Shown here: positions 1 through 17,017 of the stretch, in pieces
Layout: every line of letters starts with the position of its first letter
Numbering within the stretch: position 1 is the stretch's first letter
Assembly: GCA_964592755.1 (NCBI GenBank)
Contig: CAZQFS010000001.1
Span: 41,731-91,769, forward strand
Length of the DNA: 50,039 nt
Direction: 5' to 3'
Source of the DNA: an uncultured bacterium
GTDB taxonomy: Bacteria; Hydrothermota; Tepidihabitantia; Tepidihabitantales; Tepidihabitantaceae
The notes under the pieces: model-generated
Told to the model about the DNA's origin: nothing
What the model saw: the letters and a program-made list of their open reading frames with translations, nothing else
Databases searched by the model: none
Made by a program: the position numbers and the translations under genes

Positions 1-1553
1 TCCAGGGGGAGCGGCGGGTCTGGACCTATCGCGCGTTTCGGGAGCAAGTCCTGCCCGAGGCCTATCCCGAGCGTGAACACGTGCCAAAGACCCTCATCTT
101 CGCCAAGGACGACTCCCATGCCGAGGACATCGTCGGCATCGTGCGTGAGGAGTTCGGCAAAGGCGACGACTTCTGCCAGAAAATCACCTATCGCACCGGC
201 TTCATACGCGTGCCCCTCCCCGGGCATGAGTCCGAACCCAACCCGCCACATACCTGGGAGAAGGTGTCGAACGTCTCCGGTGCTGATGTTCTGCGCGTCT
301 TCCGCACGTCCTTCAACCCGCGCATAGCTGTGACCGTAGACATGATTGCCACCGGCACCGACGTGAAGGCGATAGAGGTCCTGGTCTTCATGCGCAACGT
401 CATGTCCGCCGGGTTCTTTGAGCAGATGAAAGGCCGTGGCGTCAGGGTGATGGACCCTGAGAAACTCAAGGCCGTTACCCCGGACGCCATCATCAAAGAC
501 CGCTTCATCATCGTGGACGCAGTCGGCGTCTGCGAGCGAGACAAGACTGAAACCACGCCACTGGAACGCCGGCCCAACGTCTCGCTCAGGAAGCTGCTTG
601 CCTTCGTCGCTGCCGGCGGGACCGAAGAGGACGCCCTCACATCACTTGCCGGCCGGCTGATGCGACTGGACCGGAAGCTGGTTCCAGAACACAAGGATGA
701 ACTCCGCAAGCTGGCCGACGGCAGGAGCCTGTCGGACCTTGCCGGTGCGCTCGTTCGCGCCACCGACCCGGATGAACAAGAGGCTGCCGCCCGAGCCAAC
801 GCCGGGCTTTTGCCAGACCGGCAGCCGACCGAGGAACAGGTAGCCAAGGCCACAAGCGAACTGATGCAGGCGGCGGCAAAGCCCTTTCACGACCCCAAGC
901 TAAGACAACGGCTCGTCGAACTCCACCAGGAATCCGAGCAGGTGATAGACATTGTCTCCGGTGATGAACTGCTCTCCTCGCAACTGGCCAAGGACACCGC
1001 GGAACGCGCCGGTGAGGTCGTGCGCGACTTCCGCGCGTGGATTGAGAAGAACAAGGACGAGATAGAGGCGTTGCAGGTGCTCTACTCCGGCCGGTACGCC
1101 AGCCGGCTCAAGCTCAGCGCCGTGAAAGACCTCGCCCGACAGCTCAAGAACCCTCCGCTAAGCACCAACCCTTCCGAGGTCTGGCATGCCTTTGAGCTCG
1201 TCGAGGGCCGCAAACCCGGCGGGTCCAGAGTTCGGCAGGCCGCCGACTTGATACGGCTCGTGCGCCATGCGCTGGAGCCGTCTGAACCGCTGGCGGCGTT
1301 CGCTGAGACCGTGGCAGAGAGGTACAAGGCCTGGCTTGCCGCGCAGGACATGGCAGGTGTGGAGTTCAACGACCAGCAACGGGAATGGCTGGATAAGATA
1401 GCCGAACACATCGGCAACAGCGTGACCTTCGAGGAAGAGGACTTCGACTACGGCTGGTTCGCCCAGCACGGGCGCCTCGGCAGAGCCAGCCAGCTCTTCG
1501 GCTCAAGGCTGAACGACCTGATTGCCAGCCTGAACGATGAACTGGCCGCATGA
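1..1553 (+). CDS. hsdR: Type I restriction enzyme R subunit (HsdR), C-terminal part; 5' end is outside the window
   Basis: The frame is open from nt 3 (QGERRVWTYRAF...), so the listed GTG at 81 is internal. Helicase C-lobe motifs KTLIFAKDDSHAEDIV and VDMIATGTDVKAIEVLVFMR...MKGRGVR are present. A long helical tail ends ...FGSRLNDLIASLNDELAA, as in EcoEI/COG4096-type HsdR. Same strand as hsdS and hsdM. Confidence 0.85.
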   Translation, partial: QGERRVWTYRAFREQVLPEAYPEREHVPKTLIFAKDDSHAEDIVGIVREEFGKGDDFCQKITYRTGFIRVPLPGHESEPNPPHTWEKVSNVSGADVLRVFRTSFNPRIAVTVDMIATGTDVKAIEVLVFMRNVMSAGFFEQMKGRGVRVMDPEKLKAVTPDAIIKDRFIIVDAVGVCERDKTETTPLERRPNVSLRKLLAFVAAGGTEEDALTSLAGRLMRLDRKLVPEHKDELRKLADGRSLSDLAGALVRATDPDEQEAAARANAGLLPDRQPTEEQVAKATSELMQAAAKPFHDPKLRQRLVELHQESEQVIDIVSGDELLSSQLAKDTAERAGEVVRDFRAWIEKNKDEIEALQVLYSGRYASRLKLSAVKDLARQLKNPPLSTNPSEVWHAFELVEGRKPGGSRVRQAADLIRLVRHALEPSEPLAAFAETVAERYKAWLAAQDMAGVEFNDQQREWLDKIAEHIGNSVTFEEEDFDYGWFAQHGRLGRASQLFGSRLNDLIASLNDELAA

Positions 1554-1657
1554 TTGACACGCCCGGTTCGTGCATGACCAGCAGTCAACCGGCTGCGGTT
1601 AAGAAGCGGCCACCAGATTGATGCGCTCGAGTGTATACCAATTTGTCATCACCTCGC

Positions 1658-1686
1658 TTGACTATATGCCATTTTGGCATTATCAT
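1658..1686 (+). promoter_or_regulatory. Sigma70-like promoter TTGACT-17nt-TATCAT with a 6-3-6 palindrome (ATGCCA TTT TGGCAT, 1666-1680) in the spacer
   Basis: -35 TTGACT at 1658-1663 and -10 TATCAT at 1681-1686, 17-nt spacer, in a locally AT-rich patch of a GC-rich genome. The perfect inverted repeat inside the spacer is a plausible operator for the XRE-type HTH encoded immediately downstream. ATG 1692 lies 5 nt after the -10. Confidence 0.5.
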
Positions 1687-1691
1687 GTTCC

Positions 1692-2864
1692 ATGAGAGGA
1701 CGAGATACCGTGACCGCTAAGTCCGGCATTTCCAGGGCCATAGCCGCGCGTCTGGCCCACGCCCGAACCGAGGCCGGCCTGACCCTGCGCGCCGCAGCCA
1801 AGGAGCTCGGTTTCGACAGCTACCAGACTCTCTCGAAAATCGAGAAGGGAGAACGTCCGGTTCGCGCGACCGAACTCGTGAGTATCGCCCAGCTGTACCA
1901 GCGCAGCGTCGGCTACTTCCTTGCTTCAGAGGCTCCTGTCGCCCGTCCGGCCGTGCTCTGGCGCGGCCGGGCCGACTCCCCGACCCGTCTCAAGGTCGAA
2001 CATCGGTTCCTGCAGTACTGCGAAGACTACGCCCGGCTGGAAGAGCTTGCGGGTCACTCCGCGCCGCGGTTTCCTCTGAAGTGGCCCGAACGTGTCGAAA
2101 GCTTCGGCCAAGCGGAAAGGGCAGCGCAGGCGACCTCGGCGCAGATGGGGCTCGGGCCGTGTCCTGGACCGAGTCTTTCAGATGTGCTAGAGGACAGGTT
2201 CGGCGTCAAGGTCTTGATCACCGACACCGAGGGGGCCGGTTCGGCCGCCTCGGTCATGGATTCCTTCGGCGCAGGGATACTCATCAACCGTCATGAAGCC
2301 CCGTGGCGTATGAACTTCAGCCTGGCGCACGAACTCTTCCATCTTGTTACCTGGGGTATGTTCGAGCCATCTGAGATACACTGCGGCAACGCGAAGACGG
2401 CCCCGGAGAGATTCGCCGACCGCTTCGCGGCGGTGTTGCTGCTGCCGGACACCGCGGTGCGAAGGGAATTCGAGTCAAGGGTCAAGGACAAGGCGCTCTC
2501 CTACATAGACTGCCTGGCGATGGCCCGCGAATTCGGTGTGTCAATCGACGCTATGGTCTGGCGGCTGGCGTCACTTCGGCTGGTGGACCGGAAGTCCGCC
2601 GAAGCAGCCCTCAAGTCGGATAAGTTGCGCGAGTTGAGCAAGACTGAACGACGGGAGGACTGGGCTGACGAACGGGTCCACTCGGGACGCTCGCGCCGCT
2701 TCACGGCCCTGGCAATCGAATGCCTTCTGTCCGGACACGTCTCCCGGGGCAGATTCTCCGAGTTGACGGGCATCAGTCGCGGCAGCATCGACGCCTTCCT
2801 CAAGCTATCCGGGTACGACCCCGCGGGTGACTACGTTGGCGAAATCAGCACTAGTACTGCTTGA
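1692..2864 (+). CDS. XRE-family HTH fused to ImmA/IrrE-type (COG2856) zinc metallopeptidase
   Basis: N-terminal HTH: LTLRAAAKELGFDSYQTLSKIEKGERPVRATELVSIAQLY. HExxH zinc site: SLAHELFHLVTW. This is followed by FAAVLLLPDTAV, typical of COG2856. Start is either ATG 1692 (leaderless relative to the promoter) or GTG 1710 preceded by GAGGA at 1696-1700. The listed TTG 1674 lies inside the promoter. Confidence 0.8.
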   Translation: MRGRDTVTAKSGISRAIAARLAHARTEAGLTLRAAAKELGFDSYQTLSKIEKGERPVRATELVSIAQLYQRSVGYFLASEAPVARPAVLWRGRADSPTRLKVEHRFLQYCEDYARLEELAGHSAPRFPLKWPERVESFGQAERAAQATSAQMGLGPCPGPSLSDVLEDRFGVKVLITDTEGAGSAASVMDSFGAGILINRHEAPWRMNFSLAHELFHLVTWGMFEPSEIHCGNAKTAPERFADRFAAVLLLPDTAVRREFESRVKDKALSYIDCLAMAREFGVSIDAMVWRLASLRLVDRKSAEAALKSDKLRELSKTERREDWADERVHSGRSRRFTALAIECLLSGHVSRGRFSELTGISRGSIDAFLKLSGYDPAGDYVGEISTSTA

Positions 2865-3363
2865 TGCTGATGTGGTCATTGAGGCCTTCCGGCTCGGCAT
2901 CTGGGCTCATCTTGTCACCAAGGCCGACATCTACGTAGCTGCAACCGTGGCCGAGGAGGCGATGCATTACTTCGACCCGGCGACGGGCCAGAGGCGTTAC
3001 ATTGACCTGGCTGCCGAGGTCGGCGGAAAGAGAATCACCATCCTCAACGGCGACGCGACCGAGATGGCGCGCGTGCAGGCCGCCTGCCGTCGGCACTGGG
3101 TGGACCTGGACACAGGAGAACTCGAGTCGATTGCGATTGTGGCCACAGGGTCGTATAGCTTCTGCACTGCCGACCGTGCCGCGGCCGAGGCCATGGCCCT
3201 GCTCGACATGCAGGGCCGAGCCATATCGCTCGAGGAATTCGTCCGCAGGCACGGAATCGCGTCGAGAATCAGCATGAAGCCCTACTACTCTGCAGCGACG
3301 ATGACCAGGTGGCTCAAAGAAGGCGGCATCCTGAAGGCGCAGACGTTCAGGACGAAGCGTTGA
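2827..3363 (+). CDS. PIN-like nuclease domain protein
   Basis: Acidic residues are spaced as in PIN folds: LLDADVVIEA, VAEEAMHY, DLDTGELESIAIV, FCTADRAAAEA. Overlaps the upstream ImmA-HTH gene by 38 nt (GTG 2827; TTG 2836 is an alternative), suggesting translational coupling. Confidence 0.6.
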   Translation: MTTLAKSALVLLDADVVIEAFRLGIWAHLVTKADIYVAATVAEEAMHYFDPATGQRRYIDLAAEVGGKRITILNGDATEMARVQAACRRHWVDLDTGELESIAIVATGSYSFCTADRAAAEAMALLDMQGRAISLEEFVRRHGIASRISMKPYYSAATMTRWLKEGGILKAQTFRTKR

Positions 3364-3371
3364 TAGCGCAG

Positions 3372-3443
3372 AGCGTCACGTCGCTCTTCGGCTCCGAGTT
3401 CTACGAGCTGATGGCCAGCATGCCCGAGACACTGGCCGCATGA
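3372..3443 (+). pseudogene. Relic of a second hsdR 3' end (last about 23 codons plus stop)
   Basis: Translates to SVTSLFGSEFYELMASMPETLAA*, against the resident hsdR end ASQLFGSRLNDLIASLNDELAA* (1485-1553). By hand alignment 50 of 69 nt are identical, including the shared terminal 12-mer ctggccgcatga. The relic stop overlaps the ATG of the next gene (ATGA at 3440-3443). Confidence 0.55.
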
Positions 3444-4138
3444 GCGTCACGCTGGAGTTCAAGACAGTCGCCTACGACTCGGTTGCACTCCCTTTGGGGT
3501 TCCCCGACATTCACACGTCCGACGCCATAACTGCGCAGCAGGAGGCTGCCGTGGTGCAGTGGCTACTCGGCCGCAGCCCGGCCAAGGGACTTGTCATGTC
3601 TGAACTGAAACTGAGCGAAGACGTGTCCTTCTGGCCGGCAGTGGCTGAGCCCGTAACAGACCTGCACCGAAAGCCCGGTGACGTAGACGCGCTACTGTGC
3701 GGAAGGGACAGTCCGCACACAGCGACCGCAGTTGAAGCGAAATGCGTGAAGGTCGTCGCGGTGGCCGTTGGGCAGGACCGTGTGAACCGGCTTGGCAAAC
3801 TCTCGAAAGCGGTCCAGCAGGTGAACGGCCTCCGGGACATGGGCTTCCACGAATCGTATCTTGCGGTCCTGTGTCTCGTGGACGCGCAGGAGCGGCTCGA
3901 GCCAAACACCGTGTTCCGCGAGATGTCGCCCAAAACCCTTTCGCGTGTATACGACTTTCCCTGTCGTGATGACCTGCACCGAGAGGTCGGGTTTCTGATA
4001 GTCGAGATAGCCCAGCCTACTGCCAAGGGCTTCAACCGAATGGCCAACATCAATGTATGCCGCGTCCAAGCCGCCATAGCGCAAGACCAACCTATAGAAT
4101 TGACCAACCGCATTGCGGAGTACGTCAAGTATCACTGA
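3440..4138 (+). CDS. Hypothetical protein with PD-(D/E)xK nuclease-like motif
   Basis: 232-aa ORF with an ATG start. Candidate restriction-endonuclease-fold core GDVDALLC...(11 aa)...AVEAKCVKV (D ... E-x-K). The 3' end overlaps the hsdS start by 26 nt. Confidence 0.55.
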   Translation: MSVTLEFKTVAYDSVALPLGFPDIHTSDAITAQQEAAVVQWLLGRSPAKGLVMSELKLSEDVSFWPAVAEPVTDLHRKPGDVDALLCGRDSPHTATAVEAKCVKVVAVAVGQDRVNRLGKLSKAVQQVNGLRDMGFHESYLAVLCLVDAQERLEPNTVFREMSPKTLSRVYDFPCRDDLHREVGFLIVEIAQPTAKGFNRMANINVCRVQAAIAQDQPIELTNRIAEYVKYH

Positions 4139-5654
4139 GGCCGGCGGCCGGCCACTGCCCCCCGGCTGGGCGCGGACGACTCTGGGCGAGGTCGCTACGC
4201 TGAACCCCAAGCCAAGGAGCCTGCCCGCGGATGGTGCCAGCCCGGTGACCTTTGTCCCGATGTCCGCAGTAGGCGTGGAGCACGGCGGCATTGCCCGGCC
4301 AGAGGTGAGGCGACTGGACCAAGTCCGACGAGGTTACACCCCGTGTCAGTCCGGTGATGTATTGTTCGCCAAGATAACGCCCTGCATGGAGAACGGAAAG
4401 GTGGCCGTCGTACCGGAGAGCCTAGTCGGTGGCATCGGGTTCGGCTCGACCGAGTTTGTGGTGCTACGCCCCAGAGACGGAATCGAGCCGCGCTGGCTGA
4501 GTCGGTTCCTATCGCAGACGTCCTTCCGACGCCGCGCGAGACGGGCCATGACGGGTGCGGTCGGACAGCAGCGCGTTCCGAAGGACTTCATAGCGACCGA
4601 GTCGCTTCGCATCGCGCCCTACCGGGAGCAGCAGCGTATCGCGGACAAGATTGACGAGCTATTCTCAGACCTTGATGCCGGAGTGAAGGCGCTGGGGCGG
4701 GTGAAGAAGAACCTGGAACGCTATCGGGCGTCGGTGCTCAAAGCCGCAGTCGAAGGTCGGCTCACAGCGGATTGGCGCAAGGCGCATCCCAATGTTGAAT
4801 CAGCAACCGAACTCCTGAAGCGCATCCTCAAGGAGCGTCGCAAGCGTTGGGAAGAGGCCCAACTCGCCAGGTACCAAGCCAAAGGCAGACAGCCTCCCAA
4901 AGGCTGGCAGGCGAAGTACAAGGAACCCGCCCCGCCCGACACATCCGAGCTTCCCTCGCTGCCCGAAGGCTGGTGCTGGGCGACGGTGGACATGCTTGGC
5001 GTCGTGTCCGGTGGCCTAACCAAGAACCCAAGTCGTGATTCAGCCCCCAGACGGATGCCATACCTGCGAGTGGCCAACGTCTACGCCGACCGCTTGGCAC
5101 TCGACGACGTCAAGCTGATTGGGGTCTTCGACAGAGAACTGCCGGGTGTGCTCGTTGAGTCAGGCGATCTGCTGGTAGTAGAGGGAAATGGCAGCAAAGA
5201 CCAGATTGGGAGAGTTGCCACTTGGGACGGGAGCGTAAGACCATGCGCTCACCAGAACCACATCATCAAGGTGAGGTTTCTGTTGCCCGAGTTGGGTCGG
5301 TATGTGCAGGACTGGTTGCTCTCGGTACCGGGCAGGCGGCGCGTCGAGAAAGCGGCCAGTTCCACATCGGGACTTTACACGCTGAGCATTTCCAAGGTGC
5401 AGTCGCTTCAAGTTCCTCTCCCTCCCTTGCAGGAGATACTGGCCATCCGCGACGAGGTCGAGAGAAACACGTCTCTTCTGGTTTCCGACGCCACCGTGGC
5501 TGAGACTACGCTGCGCCGCACAGGCGCCCTCCGCCAAGCCATCCTCAAACGGGCCTTTGAGGGACGACTCGTGCCCCAGGACCCGAACGACGAGCCCGCT
5601 GAGAAGCTGCTGGAGAGGATTCGGGCTGAAAGGCGAACCGCCAGTGCGAGATAA
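4113..5654 (+). CDS. hsdS: Type I restriction-modification specificity subunit (HsdS)
   Basis: Two target-recognition halves each begin with the typical LPxGW motif (LPPGWARTTLGEV; LPEGWCWATVDML). They are separated by conserved helical spacers (REQQRIADKIDELFSDLDAGVKAL...; LQEILAIRDEVERN...ILKRAFEGRLV). Only TTG 4113 is available as a start upstream of the first motif. Confidence 0.85.
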   Translation: MRSTSSITEAGGRPLPPGWARTTLGEVATLNPKPRSLPADGASPVTFVPMSAVGVEHGGIARPEVRRLDQVRRGYTPCQSGDVLFAKITPCMENGKVAVVPESLVGGIGFGSTEFVVLRPRDGIEPRWLSRFLSQTSFRRRARRAMTGAVGQQRVPKDFIATESLRIAPYREQQRIADKIDELFSDLDAGVKALGRVKKNLERYRASVLKAAVEGRLTADWRKAHPNVESATELLKRILKERRKRWEEAQLARYQAKGRQPPKGWQAKYKEPAPPDTSELPSLPEGWCWATVDMLGVVSGGLTKNPSRDSAPRRMPYLRVANVYADRLALDDVKLIGVFDRELPGVLVESGDLLVVEGNGSKDQIGRVATWDGSVRPCAHQNHIIKVRFLLPELGRYVQDWLLSVPGRRRVEKAASSTSGLYTLSISKVQSLQVPLPPLQEILAIRDEVERNTSLLVSDATVAETTLRRTGALRQAILKRAFEGRLVPQDPNDEPAEKLLERIRAERRTASAR

Positions 5655-7113
5655 CACCGTTCCCGCCGCAGAGTCAGTCATCGACGTATTCCTTTCCTAC
5701 ACCAGAGCGGACAAGGACTGGGTTCGGGGGCTGGCAGAACGGCTTGAGTCGGAGACCATTGACGGCACCAGGACGGGACGACCAATCAGAGTCTTCTTCG
5801 ATGAATGGGACATAGATGTCGGTGAGAATGTCGTGGTCCACGTCAATGCGGGGCTTGAGAAAGCTCGTTTCACGGCAGTCGTAGTATCACCGGACATGCT
5901 TGGTGCGGATTGGCCGACATACGAATGGACTGCCGTGGTCGCCAGCGACCCTGTGAACCGCGACAAACGCCTCATTCCACTGTTCCTCCGCGACGGCTCC
6001 GAGAAAGGGGGCAACCGCATCGAATTGCCTGCGCCGTTTCGGGTTCTGAACTGGATCGACTTCCGCCGCAAGCAGGACCACAAACGTTCGCTTCAGCGTC
6101 TTCTTCGTCGGATCAGAAGCCTGCCCCCGGCCCGCGGGCGCAGGCTTCCGCCGCTCGCGTATGTCACCCCTGCCGCGCCGGTGCCTTCACCAGAGCGAGA
6201 CACACCGGCTGAAGCCGACACAATACAGGAGGTCGTTCTCAGCAATCTTCTTCCTGTCGAGAGCTATCCTGGCGCAATCTGGAGTGCCCCGACGTCCGCC
6301 CGACAGCGAAGCGACGTCACATCCGAGGCCCCGGACGTGCCGGCATTCGAACTTCGAGAGCAGCGTCTGTACACGTTCACCGATTTGACCCGCCCAGAGG
6401 GTCCGTTTGCGCCGTTCGTGGATAGGGCTGCGGCACACAGCAATGCCGTCTCAAGCTGGATGGGTGATGATGCCCGCTGGCGCTGGTTTATTGCCTTGCT
6501 TAATCGGTGCCTAAGGCTGCATCTCAGGGGGCTGCCAGTCAGACAAGACGAAAAGGGGCGCTTCGTCTTCCTGTCCGACAATGGGGCTACGCGGAAGTGG
6601 TCGTGGGGTCCCGGGCGCAGACGAGAACGCGAGGTTGCCGCAAGAAAGTCCAATCCGGTCACGGGGCAGGAGTTCTGGGTACACCACGGCTCACGCTTGC
6701 GATTCCAGACACTGGGCGACAAGCTGTTCCTTCTTGTAGACCCCTGCTATGTGTTCACGTCAGATGGCATGCAGCCTCTATACAGCCGGGTTGTAGGGCC
6801 GTTGTCGGTGAAGTGGACCGGCCGAGAACGTAACGCGTCCATCTTGCGCCACGTGACGTTCTGGTCTCGGTTTCTGAGTCGCGGCCGGCGGAGGGTGCAA
6901 ATCGAGACCGGGGCAACACCGATAACCTTGTCCTGCGTCCCGGCGCTTGCTCGAACTCAGCGCGGGATAGAGTTCGACCACGTAGGGTTCCAGAACCTCA
7001 TCGACCAGGTCGACGACGAATTGGGCGCGGTTGCCGCCAGCGTCATGGCGTCTGACGCTCAAGGGACTCATGTTTTCGATAATGACGTGCCGGAGGCAGA
7101 TGAGACCACATAG
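5644..7113 (+). CDS. TIR-APAZ protein (SPARTA-type partner of short pAgo)
   Basis: N-terminal TIR: VIDVFLSYTRADKDW, RVFFDEWDIDVGE, AVVVSPDMLGADWPTYEWTAVV (candidate catalytic Glu), LIPLFLRD, LNWIDFRR. About 300 aa of APAZ-sized C-terminal region follow. Sits directly upstream of a short pAgo, as in SPARTA operons. Preferred start is GTG 5644 (GAAAGG 10 nt upstream), overlapping the hsdS stop by 11 nt. The listed TTG 5557 would overlap hsdS by 98 nt. Confidence 0.75.
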   Translation: MRDNTVPAAESVIDVFLSYTRADKDWVRGLAERLESETIDGTRTGRPIRVFFDEWDIDVGENVVVHVNAGLEKARFTAVVVSPDMLGADWPTYEWTAVVASDPVNRDKRLIPLFLRDGSEKGGNRIELPAPFRVLNWIDFRRKQDHKRSLQRLLRRIRSLPPARGRRLPPLAYVTPAAPVPSPERDTPAEADTIQEVVLSNLLPVESYPGAIWSAPTSARQRSDVTSEAPDVPAFELREQRLYTFTDLTRPEGPFAPFVDRAAAHSNAVSSWMGDDARWRWFIALLNRCLRLHLRGLPVRQDEKGRFVFLSDNGATRKWSWGPGRRREREVAARKSNPVTGQEFWVHHGSRLRFQTLGDKLFLLVDPCYVFTSDGMQPLYSRVVGPLSVKWTGRERNASILRHVTFWSRFLSRGRRRVQIETGATPITLSCVPALARTQRGIEFDHVGFQNLIDQVDDELGAVAASVMASDAQGTHVFDNDVPEADETT

Positions 7114-8707
7114 GAGATTCAACACACAGGGCCAGTCCGACGTCTCCCGCGGCGATCTTCTCCAGCAGAAGTTGCTCCGGGACGCCACACCGTCGTTTCA
7201 TTGCTGGCACGTCGCGGAACCAAAGCTGATATTTGCGGATGGACATAGGTGCGAGGACCCCAAGACCGGGCTTACCCTGTATGGGCCAGCCGGATTGGGC
7301 AAGGGCGCACGGTCATCGATTCGGCTCGGGATTATCGGTACGGGAGAAACAGTCCAAATGGTCCGCAACTGGCTCAAGCTGGCAGAGCACAGGATTACTG
7401 CGGGCAGGGACAAGAAAGGCAGGGCCTACGACCCGCTGTTGTCCCCAGACTTCCCCGGGTTCGGTGCTTACCCGCCATTCCACTGTGAAGTCGAGTTGGC
7501 TGACCAACACTGTGTCACCGTGCCGGGAAGGGAGTTCGAGCGCGTTGCCGAACCGGAGGAACTGGGCGCACGCATCAGTCGAGCCATTGAGGTTGTGGCG
7601 GCTCGTCTAGAATCTCTGGCCACAATTGAGCACTCGCCAGACGTAGTCTTGTGCGCGATGCCCAATGTTGTCGACTTGGCCTGTGGTCCCCAACGCGTAC
7701 GCGCTCCTCGGCCGGTCGCGATCACACCGTTCCAGAAGGCCGTCCGGAAACTTCGGCGGAAGGCCGCGAAGCTCGGGCAGTTGGCAATGGACCTTCGTCT
7801 TCCTGAAACCGGTGACGAAGACATGGAACACTGGGACTTCCACAATGCACTCAAGGTGAGAGCCATGCGATTTCGGCTGCCTACCCAGTTGGTCTGGGAG
7901 AGCACACTGACAGGGGCAAAATCGACGCAGGACCCTGCCACGATCGCTTGGAACCTGCTTGTCGCCCTCTACTACAAAGCAGGCAATCTACCTTGGCAAT
8001 TGGACTTTGGAGCCTCAGGCACGTGCTTTGTGGGCGTCACGTTCTACCGAGAAGGACCGGATCCGCAAGCACCTACGAGAATCAGCCTTGCTCAGGTGTA
8101 TTCCGAGGCAGGCGACGGTCTTGTACTGAAGGGCGAGCCAGTGCTGTGGGACCAGAAGCGCGACCGGCGGCCGCATCTTACCAGGGACACGGCCGAGACA
8201 CTCCTTACACGGGCAATCAGGTTGTACGAGCAGCACTACGACCGGGCACCAACGAGAGTAGTGGTGCACAAGACATCCCGCTATTGGCCCGAGGAGCTCG
8301 ATGGCTTCCGAGGTGCGCTTGACGCTATTCGCTCATACGACCTGCTGACTCTTGAGCAACGAGGTATCAGGTTTCTCCGTCTGGGCACCGAGCCACCCCT
8401 GCGCGGAACCGTAGTTCAGTTGGCGAACCGCGACTATCTCGTGTACACTCACGGATACGTGCCGTTTCTCAAGTGTTACCCCGGCATGCGGATTCCCAAT
8501 CCGATCGAGGTGGTAGAGCACCACGGGGATTCGGACGCCGAGCGGGTCTGTAGCGAGATACTCGCCTTGACCAAGCTCAATTGGAACAACTGCAGCTATG
8601 GCAGCGCTGACCCCGTGACAATCGCCTTCTCGCAACAGGTCGGCAGGATTTTGACGGAACTACCCGGCGGGGTTACGCCCGCGACCAATTACCGCTTCTA
8701 CATGTAG
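7100..8707 (+). CDS. Short prokaryotic Argonaute (MID-PIWI only, catalytically inactive)
   Basis: From memory, closely resembles characterised SPARTA Agos: AEPKLIFADGHRCEDPKTGLTLYGP, DFHNALKVRAMRFRLPTQLV (H..K MID motif), TIAWNLLVALYYKAGNLPWQL, ILALTKLNWNNCSYGSADPVTIAFSQQVGRILT, C-terminal YRFYM. PIWI catalytic positions are substituted (CFVGVTFY instead of GxD; VVVHKTSRY). Start is ATG 7100 (GGAGG at 7092-7096, overlaps the upstream stop by 14 nt) or TTG 7172, which better matches homologue N-termini. Confidence 0.8.
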   Translation: MRPHRRFNTQGQSDVSRGDLLQQKLLRDATPSFHCWHVAEPKLIFADGHRCEDPKTGLTLYGPAGLGKGARSSIRLGIIGTGETVQMVRNWLKLAEHRITAGRDKKGRAYDPLLSPDFPGFGAYPPFHCEVELADQHCVTVPGREFERVAEPEELGARISRAIEVVAARLESLATIEHSPDVVLCAMPNVVDLACGPQRVRAPRPVAITPFQKAVRKLRRKAAKLGQLAMDLRLPETGDEDMEHWDFHNALKVRAMRFRLPTQLVWESTLTGAKSTQDPATIAWNLLVALYYKAGNLPWQLDFGASGTCFVGVTFYREGPDPQAPTRISLAQVYSEAGDGLVLKGEPVLWDQKRDRRPHLTRDTAETLLTRAIRLYEQHYDRAPTRVVVHKTSRYWPEELDGFRGALDAIRSYDLLTLEQRGIRFLRLGTEPPLRGTVVQLANRDYLVYTHGYVPFLKCYPGMRIPNPIEVVEHHGDSDAERVCSEILALTKLNWNNCSYGSADPVTIAFSQQVGRILTELPGGVTPATNYRFYM

Positions 8708-8708
8708 C

Positions 8709-10211
8709 ATGAATTCATCACAAATCGGCACCCGGGTCTGGAACATGGCCACCGTGTTGAAGAGCGATGGGCTGAGCTACATGGAGTACGTAGGCCAGAT
8801 TACCTATCTGCTGTTCCTGAAGATGGCGCATGAGCTGACCCAGGCCCCGTACAACCGGCCGAACGTCATCCCGCCGGACAAAGATGGCAACCCGCTGGGT
8901 TGGCCGGAATTGCTGAAGCGCGACGGCGCGGACTTGGCCACGTTCTACGAACATACCCTGACCGAGTTGGGCCGGAAGAAAGGCATGCTCGGCGCCATCT
9001 TCCTGAACGCGAAGAGCGCAATCAAGGACCCGGCCAAGCTCAGGCGGCTTATCGTTGACCTTTTTGAGAAGCAGGAAGGCGGCTGGGTAAGCATGGACGT
9101 GGACGTGAAGGGCGCTATCTATGAGGAGTTGCTCAATCGGACTGCGGCCGAGTCACCTTCCGGCGCGGGCCAGTATTTCACGCCCCGCGAGCTCATCAGG
9201 GCCATAGTGGACGTGATGCAGCCGAAACCCACTGACACTATCTGCGACCCGGCCGCGGGCACCGGCGGATTCCTGCTGATTGCCTATGAATACGTGGTCA
9301 GCCAATACGGGTCAGCGATGGACCGGGACGCCCAGAAGCAGGTGCAGGAGCGCCTCATCAGCGGCATGGAACTGGTGCCGGACACGGGTAGGCTATGCGT
9401 GATGAACCTGTACCTACACACCATTGGTGGAGACGAAACCACCGTCCTGGTTGGTCACGACAGCCTGGCCCAGCCTGCACCCACGACTTATTCGATGGTC
9501 CTGACCAATCCGCCTTTTGGCCGGAAGGGCAGCATCATCACCGTAGACGACGAGGGCGAGCTTGAGCGCGAGCGGCAGGTGGTGAACCGACCCGACTTCT
9601 GGCAGGAGACGACGAACAAGCAGTTGAACTTCCTGCAGCACGTCTACACCATGCTCAAGGTGGACGGCCGGGCCGCAATTGTCCTGCCTGACAACGTGCT
9701 ATTCGAGGGCGGGGCCGGGGAGAAAATCCGGCGCAGGCTGCTTTCGACCTGTGATGTTCACACGCTCCTGCGCCTGCCCACCGGCATCTTCTACAAGCCC
9801 GGGGTGAAGGCCAACGTGCTCTTCTTTGACAAGCGGCCCGGTTCGGAGAAGCCGTGGACCACCAAGCTCTGGGTTTATGACCTGCGGACGAACAAGCACT
9901 TCACCTTGAAGCAGAACCCAATCACGCGGGATGACTTCAACGAGTTTGTGGACTGTTGCCGGCCGGGCGAACGGCATCTGCGGACGCCGACCTGGAGTGA
10001 GGAGAACCCGGAAGGCCGCTGGCGGTGCTTTGACTACGAGGAGTTGCAGAAGCGCGACAAGCTGAGCCTCGACCTCTTCTGGCTCAAGGACAAGAGCCTC
10101 GAGGACTCCGAGAACCTGCCCGAGCCCGAAGTCATCGCCGCCGAGATAGCGGACGACCTGCAAGAAGCCCTCGACCAATTCCGCAGCATTGCGAAGGACC
10201 TGGAGCAGTAG
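8709..10211 (+). CDS. hsdM: Type I restriction-modification N6-adenine DNA methyltransferase subunit (HsdM)
   Basis: HsdM N-terminal helix region (YVGQITYLLFLKMAHE), SAM-binding ICDPAAGTGGFLL, catalytic motif IV LTNPPFGRKG. ATG 8709 lies 1 nt after the pAgo stop codon (TAG 8705-8707). Confidence 0.9.
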   Translation: MNSSQIGTRVWNMATVLKSDGLSYMEYVGQITYLLFLKMAHELTQAPYNRPNVIPPDKDGNPLGWPELLKRDGADLATFYEHTLTELGRKKGMLGAIFLNAKSAIKDPAKLRRLIVDLFEKQEGGWVSMDVDVKGAIYEELLNRTAAESPSGAGQYFTPRELIRAIVDVMQPKPTDTICDPAAGTGGFLLIAYEYVVSQYGSAMDRDAQKQVQERLISGMELVPDTGRLCVMNLYLHTIGGDETTVLVGHDSLAQPAPTTYSMVLTNPPFGRKGSIITVDDEGELERERQVVNRPDFWQETTNKQLNFLQHVYTMLKVDGRAAIVLPDNVLFEGGAGEKIRRRLLSTCDVHTLLRLPTGIFYKPGVKANVLFFDKRPGSEKPWTTKLWVYDLRTNKHFTLKQNPITRDDFNEFVDCCRPGERHLRTPTWSEENPEGRWRCFDYEELQKRDKLSLDLFWLKDKSLEDSENLPEPEVIAAEIADDLQEALDQFRSIAKDLEQ

Positions 10212-10415
10212 TCCGGCTTCTCGTTCTTTCCCGAACTCACCCACACTTTCCCCCGTCCGGCTCAGGCCCGAAGTGCGCATGATAGGTGAGGTCAGATTGC
10301 TCTTTGACAACTTGTCTTGTGCACAACCGCGGGCCGGGCAGCCAGGCCCGCGGTAGCGACGGCCGGCCGGTTGCGGCCCGGCCGGCCACCGCCGCAGAAA
10401 GGAGGTGGAAACACC

Positions 10416-10790
10416 ATGAGCGACCCGACAAAGCGCATCGCCAACTGGGACGCCGGCTACGACACCTCGGCCATCAAGGCCAAGGTGGATAAGAAGCGGC
10501 CGGACATGCTCTCCCGGGTGCAGGCTCAGTTTCCTGCCATTTCCTCGATGGAGGGGCAGGTGAAGCAGGTGCTCGACCTGGCGGGCTCAACGGTCATCGA
10601 ATACCCGTTTTACCTGAGCTTCGCACGCGAGTTGTGGAGCATGACCCACGAGCGGGAAATCTCCGGCGAGGCTGCGGCGGTCGAGGCTGAGACCCTCATC
10701 GTGAAATGGGTGGCCCGCGGACTGACGCGCAGCGTGCTGGAGAACATCCGCACCGGCGTGTTCAACATCGCGCCGCCTTCATCGCCGTAA
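10416..10790 (+). CDS. Hypothetical small protein (124 aa)
   Basis: ATG 10416 is preceded by a strong SD (AAAGGAGGTG, 10398-10407). The listed start at 10317 runs through GC-rich hairpins. No recognisable domain. Confidence 0.5.
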   Translation: MSDPTKRIANWDAGYDTSAIKAKVDKKRPDMLSRVQAQFPAISSMEGQVKQVLDLAGSTVIEYPFYLSFARELWSMTHEREISGEAAAVEAETLIVKWVARGLTRSVLENIRTGVFNIAPPSSP

Positions 10791-10807
10791 GGCGAAGCAA
10801 GGACAAC

Positions 10808-10837
10808 GGCGGCAGAGAGGGCTGCATCTCTGCCGCC
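10808..10837. terminator. 11-bp GC-rich hairpin between convergent genes (bidirectional terminator candidate)
   Basis: GGCGGCAGAGA (10808-10818), loop gggctgca, TCTCTGCCGCC (10827-10837). Lies between the end of the 10416-10790 CDS and the 3' end of rnpB. No strong U-tract. Confidence 0.45.
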
Positions 10838-10865
10838 TCTGACTTGAGGGTCTGCGGACGAAGCT

Positions 10866-11240
10866 GGTACGAGGCGGGTCTGTAAGCCGAGTTCTGTACC
10901 AGACCCTGGGGCCTGGTGACGGTCATTTATCTGGACACCGGGTTGCCCTGGTGCCTCAAGCAGCCTACCCGGGAATCGTCGCGGACCGGGCCGGTCCTGT
11001 TCCCATCTTGGCCTTGCACCCGGCAGGGTTTTTCCGCCCGACACGTCACCGCGCCGGGCAGTGCGCTCTTACCGCACTTTTTCACCCTTACCCTGGACGA
11101 AAACAGGGCGGTGTGGTTTCTGTGACACTTTCCGTCCACGGGCCGTCTCCGGCCCGCAGCCTCGCTCTTAACGAGTGCCGTGCCCTGCGGTGCTCGGACT
11201 TTCCTCCCGGCATGCCGGGCGACCGTCCGACCCGCCTCAC
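10866..11240 (-). ncRNA. rnpB: RNase P RNA, bacterial type A
   Basis: The minus strand reads GAGGAAAGTCCGAGC (CR-I), GGGTAAGGGTGAAAAAGTGCGGTAAGAGCGCAC and ACAGAACTCGGCTTACAG (CR-V). P1 pairing: 5' GAGGCGGGTC (complement of 11229-11238) with 3' GACCCGCCTC (complement of 10871-10880). Length is about 375 nt. Ends are approximate to within about 5 nt. Confidence 0.85.
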
Positions 11241-11244
11241 CACT

Positions 11245-11273
11245 ATTGTAGATGAACGGCGCGCCTGCGGCAA
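11245..11273 (-). promoter_or_regulatory. Candidate rnpB promoter TTGCCG-17nt-TACAAT
   Basis: On the minus strand, -35 TTGCCG (complement of 11268-11273), 17-nt spacer, -10 TACAAT (complement of 11245-11250). This places the TSS at about 11238, at the start of the P1 helix. Confidence 0.45.
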
Positions 11274-11308
11274 GGCCGGGGTGAACTCGGGCCGGGCCGG
11301 AGTATAAT

Positions 11309-12193
11309 ATGTCCGTGGTCTGCTGTGCGTGTCCGTTTGAATGCGGCGTTGACCGAAGGCGGCAGCTTGGTGTCTGTCGCGCTCCCGACGAGTTCCACGT
11401 TGCCCAGGCTCAGCTCCACTTCTGGGAAGAGCCGCCGGTCTCGGGCACGCGCGGCTCGGGCACCGTCTTTTTCAGCCACTGCAATCTGCGCTGCCGGTTC
11501 TGCCAGAACTACGACATCTCGCAGCAGGGATACGGCCGGCCGGTCACGCCTGAGCGCCTGCAGGAGATGATGCGCGAACTCGAAGCCCAGGGTGCACACA
11601 ACATCAACCTCGTCACCCCGACCCACTACTCTTTGCAGCTTGTCCCGGTGCTCACGCAGGCCCGTCGGCACCTGAAGATACCGTTTGTCTGGAACTCCAA
11701 CGGCTATGAGAAAGCCGAGACCATCGCGCAACTTGAGGGGCTGGTTCAGGTGTATCTGCCTGACTTGAAGTACTTCTCTGACGAACTGGCACAGGCTTGT
11801 TCGGCTGCCCCGCACTACTTCAGGCATGCCGCGGCCGCGATTACCGAGATGAAACGTCAGGTCGGCACCAATCGCTACGACGAGCACGGCGTCATCGAGA
11901 AAGGCCTCATCATCCGTCATCTGGTCCTGCCCGGCCACGCCGACGACAGCCGCCGCGTCCTGGCCTGGATTCACGACCATCTCGGCCCGCGCACGCACGT
12001 CAGTCTGATGGCGCAATACTACCCGACCCACCGGGCCGCGGACCTGCCCGGCATGAATCGCCGGCTGTCTGCCGCCGAGTACGACTATGTGCGCCGGTAC
12101 TTCGAAGATCTGGGTTTCGAAGAAGGGTTCGCTCAGGAGCTCTCCGCTGCCCGGCGTGAGTACACGCCGGACTTCAAGGGGCGTGGGGTGTAG
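11309..12193 (+). CDS. Radical SAM protein (PflX/COG1313-like activating-enzyme family)
   Basis: CNLRCRFCQNYDIS (CxxxCxxC radical SAM cluster). An upstream Cys-rich N-terminus (CCACPFECGVDR...GVC) and NINLVTPTHY are typical of this family. Confidence 0.8.
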   Translation: MSVVCCACPFECGVDRRRQLGVCRAPDEFHVAQAQLHFWEEPPVSGTRGSGTVFFSHCNLRCRFCQNYDISQQGYGRPVTPERLQEMMRELEAQGAHNINLVTPTHYSLQLVPVLTQARRHLKIPFVWNSNGYEKAETIAQLEGLVQVYLPDLKYFSDELAQACSAAPHYFRHAAAAITEMKRQVGTNRYDEHGVIEKGLIIRHLVLPGHADDSRRVLAWIHDHLGPRTHVSLMAQYYPTHRAADLPGMNRRLSAAEYDYVRRYFEDLGFEEGFAQELSAARREYTPDFKGRGV

Positions 12194-12237
12194 GCTGGTT
12201 TTGACTTCGTCGCGTCTGCTCGTAGACTTCTTGCTTC

Positions 12238-13665: not shown

Positions 13666-13691
13666 CCTTACCTCGGAAAGGAGACAACTAG

Positions 13692-14783: not shown

Positions 14784-14798
14784 AACAACGGAGGAGAG

Positions 14799-15470
14799 AT
14801 GAAGAGAAGAATCCCCCTGCTACTCGTGCTTGTGCTGGGCATCTTTGCCGCAATCGCCGCCTTTGTCCCGCACCCTGCCATCTGGCACGTCGATGAGACC
14901 CTGCGCAACGACGTCATGCGTATTCTGTCGGCCTTCGGCCTGGTGCTCGGCATCGGCTCCATCCTTCAGCACCACCTGCTGAAAATCAAGCGCCACGCCC
15001 AGCACTGGCAGTACAGCTATATCACCATCATCATGCTCATCATCACGGCTATTGTCGGCGTCTTCGGTGGTATAGACCCCAACCGGCCCGGCCTGCTGCC
15101 GACCCACATCGGCTCGTTCTCATTCCACATGCAGACGCTGTACACCAACGTCATGGTCCCGCTGGGCGCGACGATGTTCGCCATGCTGGCCTTTTTCATG
15201 GCGTCGGCCGCGTACCGTGCGTTCCGTGCCCGCACGGTTGAGGCTACTCTACTGCTGGCCTCGGCCTTTGTCCTGATGCTCGGCGCCGTACCCCTGGGCC
15301 GGATGATTCACCACCAGTTGCCCTCATTCGCCGAGTGGATTCTCACCGTGCCGAACACCGCGGCCAAGCGCGGCATCCTGTTCGGCGTCGAGCTCGGCAT
15401 CTTCGCCACGTCCTTGAAGATTGTCCTCGGCATTGAACGTGGCTGGCTCGGCGGGGGAGGTGGCAAGTGA
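14799..15470 (+). CDS. Polytopic membrane protein (function unknown)
   Basis: SD GGAGGAG upstream and multiple hydrophobic helices. The stop overlaps the next gene's GTG (GTGA at 15467-15470). Confidence 0.6.
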   Translation: MKRRIPLLLVLVLGIFAAIAAFVPHPAIWHVDETLRNDVMRILSAFGLVLGIGSILQHHLLKIKRHAQHWQYSYITIIMLIITAIVGVFGGIDPNRPGLLPTHIGSFSFHMQTLYTNVMVPLGATMFAMLAFFMASAAYRAFRARTVEATLLLASAFVLMLGAVPLGRMIHHQLPSFAEWILTVPNTAAKRGILFGVELGIFATSLKIVLGIERGWLGGGGGK

Positions 15471-17001: not shown

Positions 17002-17017
17002 CCGCGCTGCTACGTTC

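Follow-up and report, generated by a model that had tools for sequence, protein, structure and literature searches.

What might explain why a type I restriction-modification (R-M) operon carries a TIR-APAZ/short Argonaute (pAgo) pair between hsdS and hsdM, and a second two-gene module after hsdR? The ORF layout and domain scans of positions 1-10211 of the window, by which we mean the whole 50,039-nucleotide stretch of DNA that was analysed, identify eight genes, all on the + strand, in the order hsdR (3' part), HTH/M78-peptidase, PIN-fold, orf3440, hsdS, TIR-APAZ, short pAgo and hsdM (Table 1); the original prediction counted nine but named eight, and the ninth ORF (10416-10790) lies beyond that range. 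We regard the operon as a carrier for exchangeable, autonomous and co-expressed defence cargo, like those that harbour PrrC, TgvAB and DarTG2, a reading to which we would give a probability of roughly 0.7.

Table 1. Features of the first 10,211 positions of the window.
Feature	Coordinates	Strand	Evidence
hsdR, 3' part; type IB-like, EcoEI/EcoAI family	1..1553	+	Pfam EcoEI_R_C 2.8e-33; NCBIfam PRK11448 6.6e-40
Promoter-like site TTGACT-17-TATCAT, with palindromes	1635..1686 (promoter 1658-1686)	+	Promoter and palindrome searches
HTH (XRE) + M78/ImmA-IrrE zinc peptidase, RmrA-like repressor/antitoxin (putative)	1692 or 1710..2864	+	HTH_3 8.4e-10; Peptidase_M78 1.8e-14 (Pfam)
PIN-fold protein, 175 aa from TTG 2836, candidate toxin	2836..3363	+	AF2 and Foldseek
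Relic copy of hsdR 3' end	3383..3443	+	76% identity with 1493-1553; CTGGCCGCATGA at the end of both copies
orf3440, conserved accessory gene of the hsd family	3440..4138	+	PD-(D/E)xK-like motif GDVD 80-83, E99-x-K101
hsdS, two target-recognition domains (TRDs), start TTG 4113	4113..5654	+	PADLOC Specificity_I 5.5e-154, residues 14-510
TIR-APAZ, effector subunit and putative NADase, 489 aa	5644..7113	+	TIR_2 3.6e-24; APAZ part Aga_REase-PNTD 1e-36
Short pAgo (MID + inactive PIWI), 535 aa, predicted sensor subunit	7100..8707	+	PADLOC pAgo_I 1.7e-148
hsdM, N6-adenine methyltransferase	8709..10211	+	N6_Mtase 1.8e-62, HsdM_N; PADLOC MTase_I 1.8e-175

The carrier is a chromosomal operon, probably from a member of the Planctomycetota; the EcoEI/EcoAI-like family to which it belongs has a gene order of its own, hsdR-orf3440-hsdS-hsdM. 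The hsdR reading frame runs from base 3 to a TGA stop at 1551-1553, and the full gene on the source contig encodes at least 950 amino acids with HSDR_N, DEAD, ResIII and SWI2_SNF2 domains. The closest related operon (L168), about 80% identical at the DNA level, encodes an HsdM that is 84% identical, and its orf3440 homologue (78% identical) lies directly between hsdR and hsdS. The orf3440 family comprises 469 clusters without a Pfam domain, in which D81, D83 and K101 are invariant; this motif is the basis of the PD-(D/E)xK-like label proposed earlier, a tentative one, and the AF2 model is poor (pLDDT 43). Residues 18-189 of HsdS match Pfam Methylase_S, and blastn against L168 finds conserved segments at 4626-4990 and 5509-5614, with variable TRDs. 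HsdM has the DPAAGTGGF and NPPF motifs and is 64% identical to that of another operon of the family, L068. The R-S-M order, previously taken as atypical, is a trait of the hsd family, found in L168, L001, L068 and L173, and not a result of insertion. The argument that the methylase, expressed by read-through, protects the host from its own HsdR is also weak for a type I system: it is established knowledge, restated in PMC11411939, that HsdM itself is needed for type I restriction, so lost read-through would kill both activities and expose nothing.

Judged by sequence comparison, both additional modules are real insertions, and the predicted splitting of the operon is upheld because the comparison with L168 and a 70-nt repeat scar point the same way. 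Blastn homology between the window and L168 is interrupted at 1554-3431 (it ends at 1553 and returns at 3432) and at 5615-8704. The HTH/PIN pair is absent from the L168 operon, and in the window this module is flanked by a diverged direct repeat of the hsdR 3' end (70 nt, 76% in the repeat search), of which the relic is the right-hand copy. The hsdS-hsdM slot of L168 holds a GIY-YIG/DUF4357/RAMA gene, and that of a Gemmobacter plasmid (L173, HsdM 51% identical, order R-S-DUF262-M) a DUF262/GmrSD-like gene. There is a compositional step between pAgo and hsdM: GC3 is 0.68 in both TIR-APAZ and pAgo, 0.82 in hsdM and 0.79-0.86 in neighbouring chromosomal genes. Direct reading of the sequence reproduces the junctions given in the original prediction: orf3440 and hsdS overlap by 26 nt (no in-frame start other than TTG 4113 precedes the conserved N-terminus of HsdS), hsdS and TIR-APAZ by 11 nt (GTG 5644 against TAA 5652-5654), TIR-APAZ and pAgo by 14 nt (ATG 7100 against TAG 7111-7113, with GGAGG 3 nt before the ATG), and pAgo and hsdM are 1 nt apart (TAG 8705-8707, c, ATG 8709). 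The Argonaute pair is, as claimed, wedged between hsdS and hsdM with zero intergenic room. The gene calls made independently by JGI for the source contig match for TIR-APAZ, pAgo and hsdM. In the same calls, hsdS is shortened. All three cargos (window, L168, L173) overlap the end of hsdS by 11 nt, and the window and L168 have the stop-1 nt-ATG junction with hsdM in common; the tight geometry is a property of the slot and not of SPARTA, which weakens the earlier reading.

The Argonaute pair has the architecture of SPARTA (clade S2A; CrtSPARTA, MapSPARTA, PDB 8qlo, 8fex, 8ifk), with the same overlapping TIR-APAZ and MID-PIWI* pAgo layout, the TIR glutamate and the HK-type MID motif, and by analogy would be expected to couple RNA-guided sensing of ssDNA to NAD(P)+ depletion. 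The glutamate in ..DWPTYEW.. aligns with the AbTir glutamate in ..DWTNYEL.., and in pAgo K252, Q263 and K293 are invariant and H248 near-invariant, corresponding to the HK-type MID motif (PMC6299218), with VVVHKTS in place of the catalytic RDG segment. In sequence, however, the pair is nearer to representatives of clade S2B. Among solved structures, SPARHA and SPARDA (S2B; HNH-, DREN- or DUF4365-APAZ; PMC12738770) come closest to both the pAgo and the APAZ part: pAgo scores 276 bits against 9om4_B (5.9e-81; then 9qbp_B and 9jsb_A) but about 180 bits against SPARTA pAgos (8qlo_B/8fex_B, ~1e-52), and the APAZ part is closest to the HNH-APAZ chain 9om4_A (4.4e-26), whereas the TIR-APAZ search returned no SPARTA TIR-APAZ chain at E 1e-3. 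In the window's pair a TIR takes the place of a nuclease as effector domain; published summaries list TIR in S2A and "various effectors" in S2B. The pair also lies inside a type I operon, unlike stand-alone SPARTA.

How often are such pairs linked to R-M genes? The same R-S-[TIR-APAZ-pAgo]-M order is found in an unrelated Planctomycetota MAG (L001; pAgo 61%, HsdM 49% identity), and other permutations recur: [pair]-M-S-..R in L081/L098, R-S-M-[pair] in L068, where a very different TIR-APAZ/pAgo lineage (pAgo 39%) is joined by a 4-nt GTGA overlap, further type I arrangements (L036, L004/L087, L039, L071, L142, L127), and partners of type III (L047/L136), type IIG (L014/L060) and type IV. At least six distinct architectures have the pair co-oriented with and abutting R-M genes, and overlapping stop and start codons at many independent junctions suggest that co-expression is selected. 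The linkage is nevertheless not obligate, with an R-M gene within 1 kb at 15 of 121 evaluable Argonaute-pair loci and most homologues standing alone. In the window's own pAgo clade, co-oriented R-M genes lie within 5 kb in 7-8 of about 11 loci that have enough upstream flank, which exceeds a simple hotspot model and could reflect functional coupling. Other cargo in these operons includes CBASS, GmrSD, YhcG and AAA_15/21.

Functional integration of the two systems, which we consider unlikely, could take the form of a PrrC-like guard, in which the type I enzyme physically holds or licenses the Argonaute/TIR pair and releases it when phage anti-restriction proteins inhibit the enzyme, or of priming, in which HsdR cleavage and RecBCD processing produce DNA ends and single-stranded fragments that trigger pAgo. 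The enrichment in the pAgo clade and the recurring architectures speak for such integration, as do the embedded order kept in L001 despite the divergence of HsdM and the union of the same hsd family with a distant lineage in L068; PrrC in EcoprrI is a precedent, and TgvAB protects 10-100-fold better with the whole type I cluster (PMC11411939). Yet slot and junction geometry are common to unrelated cargo, CBASS occupies the equivalent position in L039, the majority of homologues dispense with R-M genes, and the embedded proteins have, by their lengths, no added domain compared with non-embedded homologues (e.g., L084, L002). The variety of partners, which span differing type I families and types III, IIG and IV, argues against a specific protein-protein interface, and we found no sign in the sequences of a mechanistic fusion between the two systems.

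The gene after hsdR begins at ATG 1692 (possibly leaderless; also the JGI call) or GTG 1710, and its product matches 16 RmrA profiles in PADLOC (best 2.5e-21) and capP (2.2e-17). As in RosmerTA (RmrT/RmrA; Millman et al. 2022, 10.1101/2022.05.11.491447), this HTH and zinc-peptidase gene has a small partner gene that overlaps it (29 nt), but the partner, whose fold is PIN, matches no RmrT profile. It has zero matches in Pfam, PADLOC and PHROG; the AF2 model (pLDDT 73.7) and its top Foldseek matches, the PIN domains Nob1, 1y82, 1v96 and VapC4 (E 1e-4 to 1e-3, TM 0.5-0.68), back the PIN-like label assigned originally. D13, D15, E19, E44, D50, E98, E100 and D116 are invariant. Its homologues are always 3' of an overlapping HTH/M78 gene, and the pair occurs on other contigs without hsd genes, with the identical 29-nt overlap, which counts for module autonomy, as does the lack of an adjacent R-M gene in most pAgo homologues.

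The only strong promoter-like site is the one at 1658-1686, the best match in 1-11400 (10 of 12); as the scan used a sigma-70 consensus on a Planctomycetota-like genome, further promoters may lie within coding sequence. The perfect 6-3-6 palindrome ATGCCAtttTGGCAT (1666-1680) lies inside its spacer, and a degenerate copy with two mismatches, ATACCAATTTGTCAT (1635-1649), lies 31 nt upstream; we infer a putative operator of the HTH protein. The terminator scan found no terminator-like site with a good stem on the + strand of 1700-10200. It is conceivable, if rather improbable, that the operon is inducible, the HTH/M78 protein acting mainly as a stress- or phage-responsive repressor on the model of CapH/CapP, IrrE or RptR, so that expression of hsdS, the Argonaute pair and hsdM would stay low until the protein was inactivated by its own peptidase domain, and the PIN protein being an accessory and not an antitoxin-controlled toxin. 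The near-consensus promoter with its perfect and half-conserved palindromes, the capP match and the absence of a terminator before hsdM agree with this, and RptR, a dedicated repressor that binds palindromes overlapping the promoter of a seven-ORF type I/DarTG2 island, sets a precedent (PMC12255303). However, the HTH/M78-PIN pair moves as a unit, the best PADLOC matches of its regulator are RosmerTA antitoxins, L168 has the same hsd operon without the regulator, and the promoter remains a consensus match. Induction would be compatible with the cargo-carrier explanation.

It is very improbable that the Argonaute pair arrived recently as a passenger, broke hsdS-hsdM coupling and left one or both systems non-functional: its lower GC3 suggests recent arrival, and a remnant HsdM_N/YgjP fragment after pAgo in L092 and a split pAgo in L066 indicate that decay does happen at such loci, but none of the eight ORFs is disrupted and catalytic or binding motifs are kept (TIR Glu, HK MID motif, NPPF), a second sample contains the identical locus, the order is conserved in L001 at 61% pAgo identity, and the exact stop-1 nt-ATG junction keeps the coupling.

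With the operon as a carrier, cassette 1, a two-gene HTH/M78 repressor-antitoxin (RmrA-like) and PIN-fold toxin, would have entered at the hsdR/orf3440 junction, bringing its own operator-bearing promoter, with the duplicated hsdR 3' end on its flanks; cassette 2, TIR-APAZ and short pAgo, would occupy the hsdS-hsdM slot, where relatives put other nucleases. The seven distal genes are probably co-transcribed and translationally coupled. By homology, HsdM2S1 would methylate host DNA and HsdR2M2S1 would restrict unmodified DNA as a first line. The pAgo/TIR-APAZ heterodimer would load 5'-phosphorylated small RNA guides, sense complementary single-stranded DNA from replicons that invade or are present in high copy, and oligomerise, and its TIR NADase would deplete NAD(P)+. 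This second line would end in abortive infection or in loss of the plasmid. The HTH/M78-PIN pair may be a toxin-antitoxin or Abi unit and probably also represses the internal promoter. Each module would be independent, linkage providing co-inheritance, co-expression and complementary coverage and not a joint enzyme. Of the reading first proposed, the insertions, the wedged pair and the recurrent order survive; the shared slot geometry, the mostly stand-alone homologues and the fact that such embedding is known weaken it.

This arrangement is reminiscent of EcoprrI, in which an abortive-infection effector, PrrC, lies between type I hsd genes on the same strand. PrrC is a single ATPase/ACNase protein, which the R-M enzyme keeps masked and which T4 Stp triggers, whereas the window has no PrrC-type domain or sign of masking, and its slot is S-M, not S-R. 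TgvAB of Vibrio cholerae VPI-2 is likewise a two-gene autonomous system inside a type I operon, for which a role complementary to restriction has been proposed (PMC11411939), but its genes encode type IV restriction of the GmrSD kind where the window has an Abi-type Argonaute/TIR pair. That type I operons can harbour autonomous defence systems has been described for PrrC, TgvAB and DarTG2 and in the "guilt-by-embedding" catalogue of Payne et al. 2024 (10.1101/2024.01.29.577857) for BREX, DISARM and type I R-M, where known and new defence systems between type I genes are a general phenomenon; Argonaute and SPARTA are not mentioned in its text or accessible supplements. Our literature search found no paper on a SPARTA/type I fusion, in keeping with the original supposition that it was undescribed. 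The EPEC RptR-hsdM-hsdS-darT-darG-hsdR-M48 island resembles the operon in the window in that type I genes enclose a toxin-antitoxin defence system; it differs in regulator family, gene order and cargo, and the regulator-like gene of the window is inside the operon, after hsdR. The DarTG2 embedding site has been called a possible recombination hotspot (PMC12255303).

Why would a short Argonaute (pAgo) and its TIR-APAZ partner lie between hsdS and hsdM of a type I restriction-modification (R-M) operon? The most likely answer, judging from the analysis as a whole, is that the modules of the locus are autonomous and that the operon packages them as exchangeable defense cargo for co-inheritance and co-expression. 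Co-packaging in a type I operon has been shown experimentally for TgvAB (PMC11411939) and for DarTG2/RptR (PMC12255303), and genes embedded in defense operons have been catalogued by Payne et al. (10.1101/2024.01.29.577857). Embedding in type I operons is already known as a general phenomenon, as is SPARTA itself; what is new is the Argonaute/TIR cargo in the hsdS-hsdM slot, the exact-junction exchange of cassettes and the repeated association with R-M genes of a pAgo clade that bears TIR and resembles S2B. The original prediction was not aware of any R-M/SPARTA operon fusion, and a literature search likewise turned up no SPARTA-like system described within a type I operon; Ryazansky et al. 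2018 go no further than naming HsdS and a SAM methyltransferase among the orthogroups that neighbor pAgos.

ORF layout and domain scans place eight genes in succession on the + strand of window positions 1-10211. The original prediction counted nine, of which only eight were named and are present, although the same-strand run itself stands. Its junction sizes proved exact when read directly: overlaps of 26 nt for orf3440/hsdS, 11 nt for hsdS/TIR-APAZ and 14 nt for TIR-APAZ/pAgo, with the ATG of hsdM following the pAgo stop after a single nucleotide. Upstream of LPPGW, the conserved HsdS N-terminus, TTG 4113 is the sole start, and GGAGG precedes the pAgo start at ATG 7100. Independent gene calls on a JGI metagenome contig (Ga0394875_0000618) match for TIR-APAZ, pAgo and hsdM, and the identical locus was also found in a second sample. 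The JGI call puts the hsdS start at 4386 (422 aa), cutting off most of the first target-recognition domain; the profile alignments require the TTG 4113 start instead.

The type I system looks complete at the sequence level. The part of HsdR in the window is of the EcoEI/EcoAI C-terminal type in domain scans (EcoEI_R_C, 2.8e-33; PRK11448, 6.6e-40), and the full gene on the source contig encodes HSDR_N, DEAD/ResIII, SWI2_SNF2 and EcoEI_R_C domains, as expected of a type I HsdR. HsdM is identified by N6_Mtase (1.8e-62), HsdM_N and PADLOC MTase_I (1.8e-175), and both the AdoMet motif DPAAGTGGF and NPPF can be read in its translation. HsdS matches PADLOC Specificity_I (5.5e-154) over residues 14-510, and when it is compared with its counterpart in L168, the closest related operon, conserved blocks alternate with two variable domains, the two target-recognition domains of a specificity subunit. 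The enzyme would be predicted to methylate and restrict DNA.

Sequence comparison identifies both the HTH/PIN module and the Argonaute pair as insertions in the type I operon; the proposal that the operon is split by two inserted modules is borne out by L168 and by a direct repeat around the HTH/PIN module. L168 is a 7-kb contig with the order hsdR-orf3440-hsdS-X-hsdM, its HsdM being 84%, its orf3440 product 78% and its DNA about 80% identical to the window. DNA homology reaches the hsdR stop (1553), is missing over 1554-3431 and returns 8 nt before the orf3440 ATG; it then tracks the conserved hsdS blocks to 5614, is missing over 5615-8704 and returns at the stop codon before hsdM. X encodes a 292-aa GIY-YIG/DUF4357/RAMA protein and sits in the slot just as the Argonaute pair does in the window, with an 11-nt overlap at the hsdS stop and one nucleotide left before the hsdM ATG. 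The same hsd family on a Gemmobacter plasmid (HsdM 51%) has the order R-S-DUF262-M, again with an 11-nt overlap, and in a Vibrio plasmid hsdS and hsdM are adjacent and the slot is empty. The embedded-cassette pattern is found both ways: the cassette occurs outside the host system, and the same hsd family occurs without the Argonaute pair (L168, the Gemmobacter plasmid L173, and L174). GC3 is 0.68 for TIR-APAZ and pAgo and 0.82 for hsdM across the 1-nt junction, with neighboring chromosomal genes at 0.79-0.86. The HTH/PIN module lies between 70-nt direct repeats (1493-1562 and 3383-3452; 76% identical), the second copy being a relic HsdR C-terminus (LFGSEFYELMASMPETLAA versus LFGSRLNDLIASLNDELAA). 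This is the sole long repeat, and no direct-repeat scar surrounds the Argonaute cargo. The locus is a concrete, sequence-resolved case of cassettes being exchanged within a type I R-M operon, in which one hsdS-hsdM slot with conserved junction geometry is filled in relatives with an Argonaute/TIR pair, a GIY-YIG/RAMA nuclease or a GmrSD-like enzyme.

An overlap of exactly 11 nt with the hsdS stop is seen in three unrelated cargos: TIR-APAZ (window 5644-5654), GIY-YIG/DUF4357 (L168 2417-2427) and DUF262 (L173 7073-7083). Alignment of four loci revealed no clear sequence homology at the hsdS/cargo junctions, the geometry alone being in common. A mobile-element context for the window itself was rejected: it contains no tRNA, and the downstream neighbors include rnpB, a radical-SAM gene, a purF-like amidotransferase gene and, further on, recA. 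A GC-rich hairpin (10808-10837, - strand) about 30 nt beyond the 3' end of the RNase P RNA may be its terminator.

Within the pair, the TIR-APAZ protein matches TIR_2 (3.6e-24), and its C-terminal two thirds match Argonaute-associated APAZ profiles. The Glu of DWPTYEW in the TIR domain aligns with that of the AbTir NADase motif WTNYE, so a TIR-APAZ gene with the catalytic Glu present lies directly upstream of pAgo, as for a SPARTA partner. The 535-aa pAgo (PADLOC pAgo_I, 1.7e-148) aligns over its full length to short pAgo chains and, as in SPARTA, consists of MID and an inactive PIWI, with no N or PAZ domain. It keeps the HK-type MID signature (H248, K252, Q263 and K293; PMC6299218), and its PIWI domain is devoid of catalytic residues, with VVVHKTS in place of the catalytic segment. 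The gene architecture is shared with SPARTA, but among PDB chains the best pAgo match is SPARHA (9om4_B, 5.9e-81), followed by SPARDA pAgos (1e-64 to 1e-73) and SPARTA (about 1e-52); the APAZ region matches HNH-APAZ (4.4e-26), and no SPARTA TIR-APAZ chain matched at 1e-3. For both subunits, then, the S2B representatives score above canonical SPARTA in a comparison of bit scores. Published summaries list TIR under S2A and 'various effectors' under S2B (PMC12738770). Because both subunits are nearer S2B while TIR is listed under S2A, we call the pair 'SPARTA-like', a sequence-level label, rather than SPARTA proper. The complex would sense invader ssDNA using RNA guides and then deplete NAD(P)+. 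A plasmid search with the pAgo returned relatives at no more than 36% identity and was uninformative on R-M context; among the matches listed, the partners, where annotated, were mostly DUF4365 (SPARDA-like).

How often do such pairs adjoin R-M genes? In 165 loci around pAgo relatives, neighbors were labeled by tblastn, local profiles and Pfam checks. The last were applied to adjacent ORFs because the local profiles drifted, the HTH profile catching TIR-APAZ ORFs and those for 'HsdR' and 'HsdM' recruiting helicases of other kinds and methylases that were type IIG, type III or fused; for three loci (L083, L093 and L025) the label was lowered to 'helicase, not proven R-M'. A co-oriented R-M-like gene lies within 1 kb in 15 of 121 non-redundant evaluable loci and is absent from the other 106. 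Within the window's clade the figure is 6 of 14 loci (7-8 of about 11 within 5 kb), against 9/107 outside it. The neighborhood survey suggested in the original prediction also recovered the hsdS-upstream/hsdM-downstream order in L001, a Planctomycetota MAG, and in the other arrangements tabulated the pair is co-oriented with and abuts R-M genes. From these counts and arrangements, the Argonaute/R-M linkage is real, repeated and concentrated in one clade, and it is far from obligate. Fusion into R-M operons has happened repeatedly in a large TIR-APAZ/short-pAgo clade that resembles S2B more than canonical SPARTA, above all in Planctomycetota.

Window features, and gene orders in which an Argonaute pair (TIR-APAZ plus short pAgo) adjoins R-M genes
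Feature or locus	Position	Strand	Match or gene order	Remarks
PIN-fold orf	2836-3363	+		
orf3440	3440-4138	+		
hsdS	4113-5654	+		
TIR-APAZ	5644-7113	+		
Short pAgo	7100-8707	+		
hsdM	8709-10211	+		
RNase P RNA class A, bacterial	10867-11238	-	RF00010, 244.5 bits, full length	immediately after the hsd locus
recA	33489-34547	-		
L001 (Planctomycetota MAG)			hsdR-DUF4160-hsdS-[TIR-APAZ-pAgo]-hsdM	window order; 8-nt overlap, 12-nt gap; pAgo 61%, HsdM 49%
L081			[pair]-hsdM-hsdS-AAA-hsdR	on ICE-like element
L098			[pair]-hsdM-hsdS	
L068			hsdR-DUF3800-hsdS-hsdM-[pair]	GTGA overlap; HsdM 64%, pAgo 39%
L036			hsdR-hsdM-YhcG-hsdS-[pair]	
L004, L087			hsdM-YhcG-hsdS-hsdR-YgjP-[pair]	
L039			hsdM-hsdS-[CBASS]-hsdR-YgjP-[pair]	
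L071, L142			hsdM-hsdS-hsdR-[pair]	
L127			[pair]-hsdR	
L047, L136			type III Mod/Res-[pair]	
L014, L060			type IIG adjoining pair	
L003, L007			GmrSD-[pair]	

The identities in L068 indicate a different Argonaute lineage on the same hsd family. The L081 array (7505-20024) runs integrase-TIR-APAZ-pAgo-hsdM (676 aa)-hsdS (263 aa)-AAA_15/21 ATPase-hsdR, with a 4-nt overlap between the integrase and TIR-APAZ genes; it adjoins TrwC, a T4SS coupling protein, ArdC and ParDE, and the Argonaute/R-M operon therefore rides an ICE-like element. The type I operon of L039 (1-11563; Anaerolineales MAG) carries two abortive-infection systems, the CBASS consisting of a PNP-SAVED effector and a CD-NTase, and the whole array is on one strand.

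The HTH/M78 protein (HTH_3 plus Peptidase_M78) matches 16 PADLOC RmrA profiles (best 2.5e-21), as an RmrA homolog would. RmrA is the antitoxin of RosmerTA (Millman et al. 2022, 10.1101/2022.05.11.491447). No RmrT-family toxin lies beside the RmrA-like gene, neither the PIN-fold orf nor orf3440 having a PADLOC match; both also lack a Pfam domain, and PHROGs and NCBIfam added nothing for these two small ORFs. The window thus has an RmrA-like protein in common with RosmerTA but differs in the partner, a PIN fold and not RmrT. This partner (175 aa from TTG 2836) overlaps the HTH/M78 gene and has an invariant acidic residue set in its family alignment; Foldseek matched its AF2 model (pLDDT 73.7) to PIN proteins, Nob1 and VapC4 among them, at TM 0.5-0.68. 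On four other contigs the PIN-fold gene is in every case preceded by an HTH/M78 gene that overlaps it, and hsd homologs were not detected on these short contigs (1.1-2.4 kb). The two proteins would form a toxin-antitoxin/Abi unit. Alternatively, the HTH/M78 protein may be mainly regulatory, which is compatible with the operon being a carrier of cargo. A consensus scan located a near-consensus promoter-like site, TTGACT-17-TATCAT, at 1658-1686, with a perfect palindrome (ATGCCAtttTGGCAT) inside its spacer and a degenerate copy 31 nt upstream, an arrangement that would fit autorepression by the HTH protein. A sequence scan revealed no convincing + strand terminator from this promoter until after hsdM, and the HTH gene through hsdM would constitute a single translationally coupled unit, with added read-through from hsdR.

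Does restriction talk to the Argonaute? The original prediction held that HsdM, which shields the host from its own HsdR, appears to be transcribed only by read-through of the TIR-APAZ/pAgo pair. As an argument, this shielding carries little weight: restriction by a type I enzyme requires HsdM just as methylation does, and polar loss therefore turns both activities off. A wiring of restriction to this short-pAgo/TIR clade could take the form of a guard against anti-restriction, the type I complex licensing or masking Argonaute-TIR in the manner of PrrC, whose effector gene is likewise embedded in an hsd operon, or of priming, with restriction-generated ends as the ssDNA trigger of pAgo. Such wiring would explain why, across at least six architectures, the pair and hsd genes stay joined codon-to-codon, and the clade-level enrichment speaks for it; however, the slot is common to unrelated cargo, the partner R-M types vary and the embedded pair has no extra domains, and we consider it improbable. 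One 10-kb clone would allow a direct test of whether restriction and the abortive infection triggered by the Argonaute act in synergy or show epistasis, and even without coupling the locus would be a useful example of layered immunity packaged at the level of an operon. Decay of the locus is unlikely because every ORF and motif is intact and the gene order is kept in L001.

The remaining gene of the operon, orf3440, belongs to a family of about 240 aa with 469 clusters at 50% identity. None of 35 members tested contains a Pfam domain, and profile searches against PDB and Pfam gave no match; the predicted structure is poor (pLDDT 43), too low for a fold search. D81, D83 and K101 are invariant across the family, a motif that makes orf3440 a PD-(D/E)xK-like candidate. 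In L168 its homolog lies directly between hsdR and hsdS, and it may therefore be a putative type I accessory nuclease. The locus thereby points to an uncharacterized accessory family tied to type I systems.

Other observations concern individual loci. The pAgo of L066 (Verrucomicrobia UBA1319) is in two pieces about 2.5 kb apart (6705-7502 and 10001-10750), apparently interrupted by an insertion. In L003 (11641-19344) a 2567-aa sacsin/HATPase_c protein begins 30 nt past the pAgo stop, and a 1406-aa N6_Mtase, Methylase_S and AAA_16 fusion lies upstream of the pair. In L092 (4321-4869), a 182-aa ORF 13 nt past pAgo combines a segment from the N-terminus of HsdM with the C-terminal half of a YgjP-like metallopeptidase; it resembles what a deletion in an hsdM...ygjP operon would leave behind. 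Elsewhere in the window, a second DNA methyltransferase (47126-48934; N6_N4_Mtase, 1.4e-39) is fused to an HNH-associated repeat and preceded by a 349-aa ORF (46077-47126), and may represent another R-M or orphan methylase locus.
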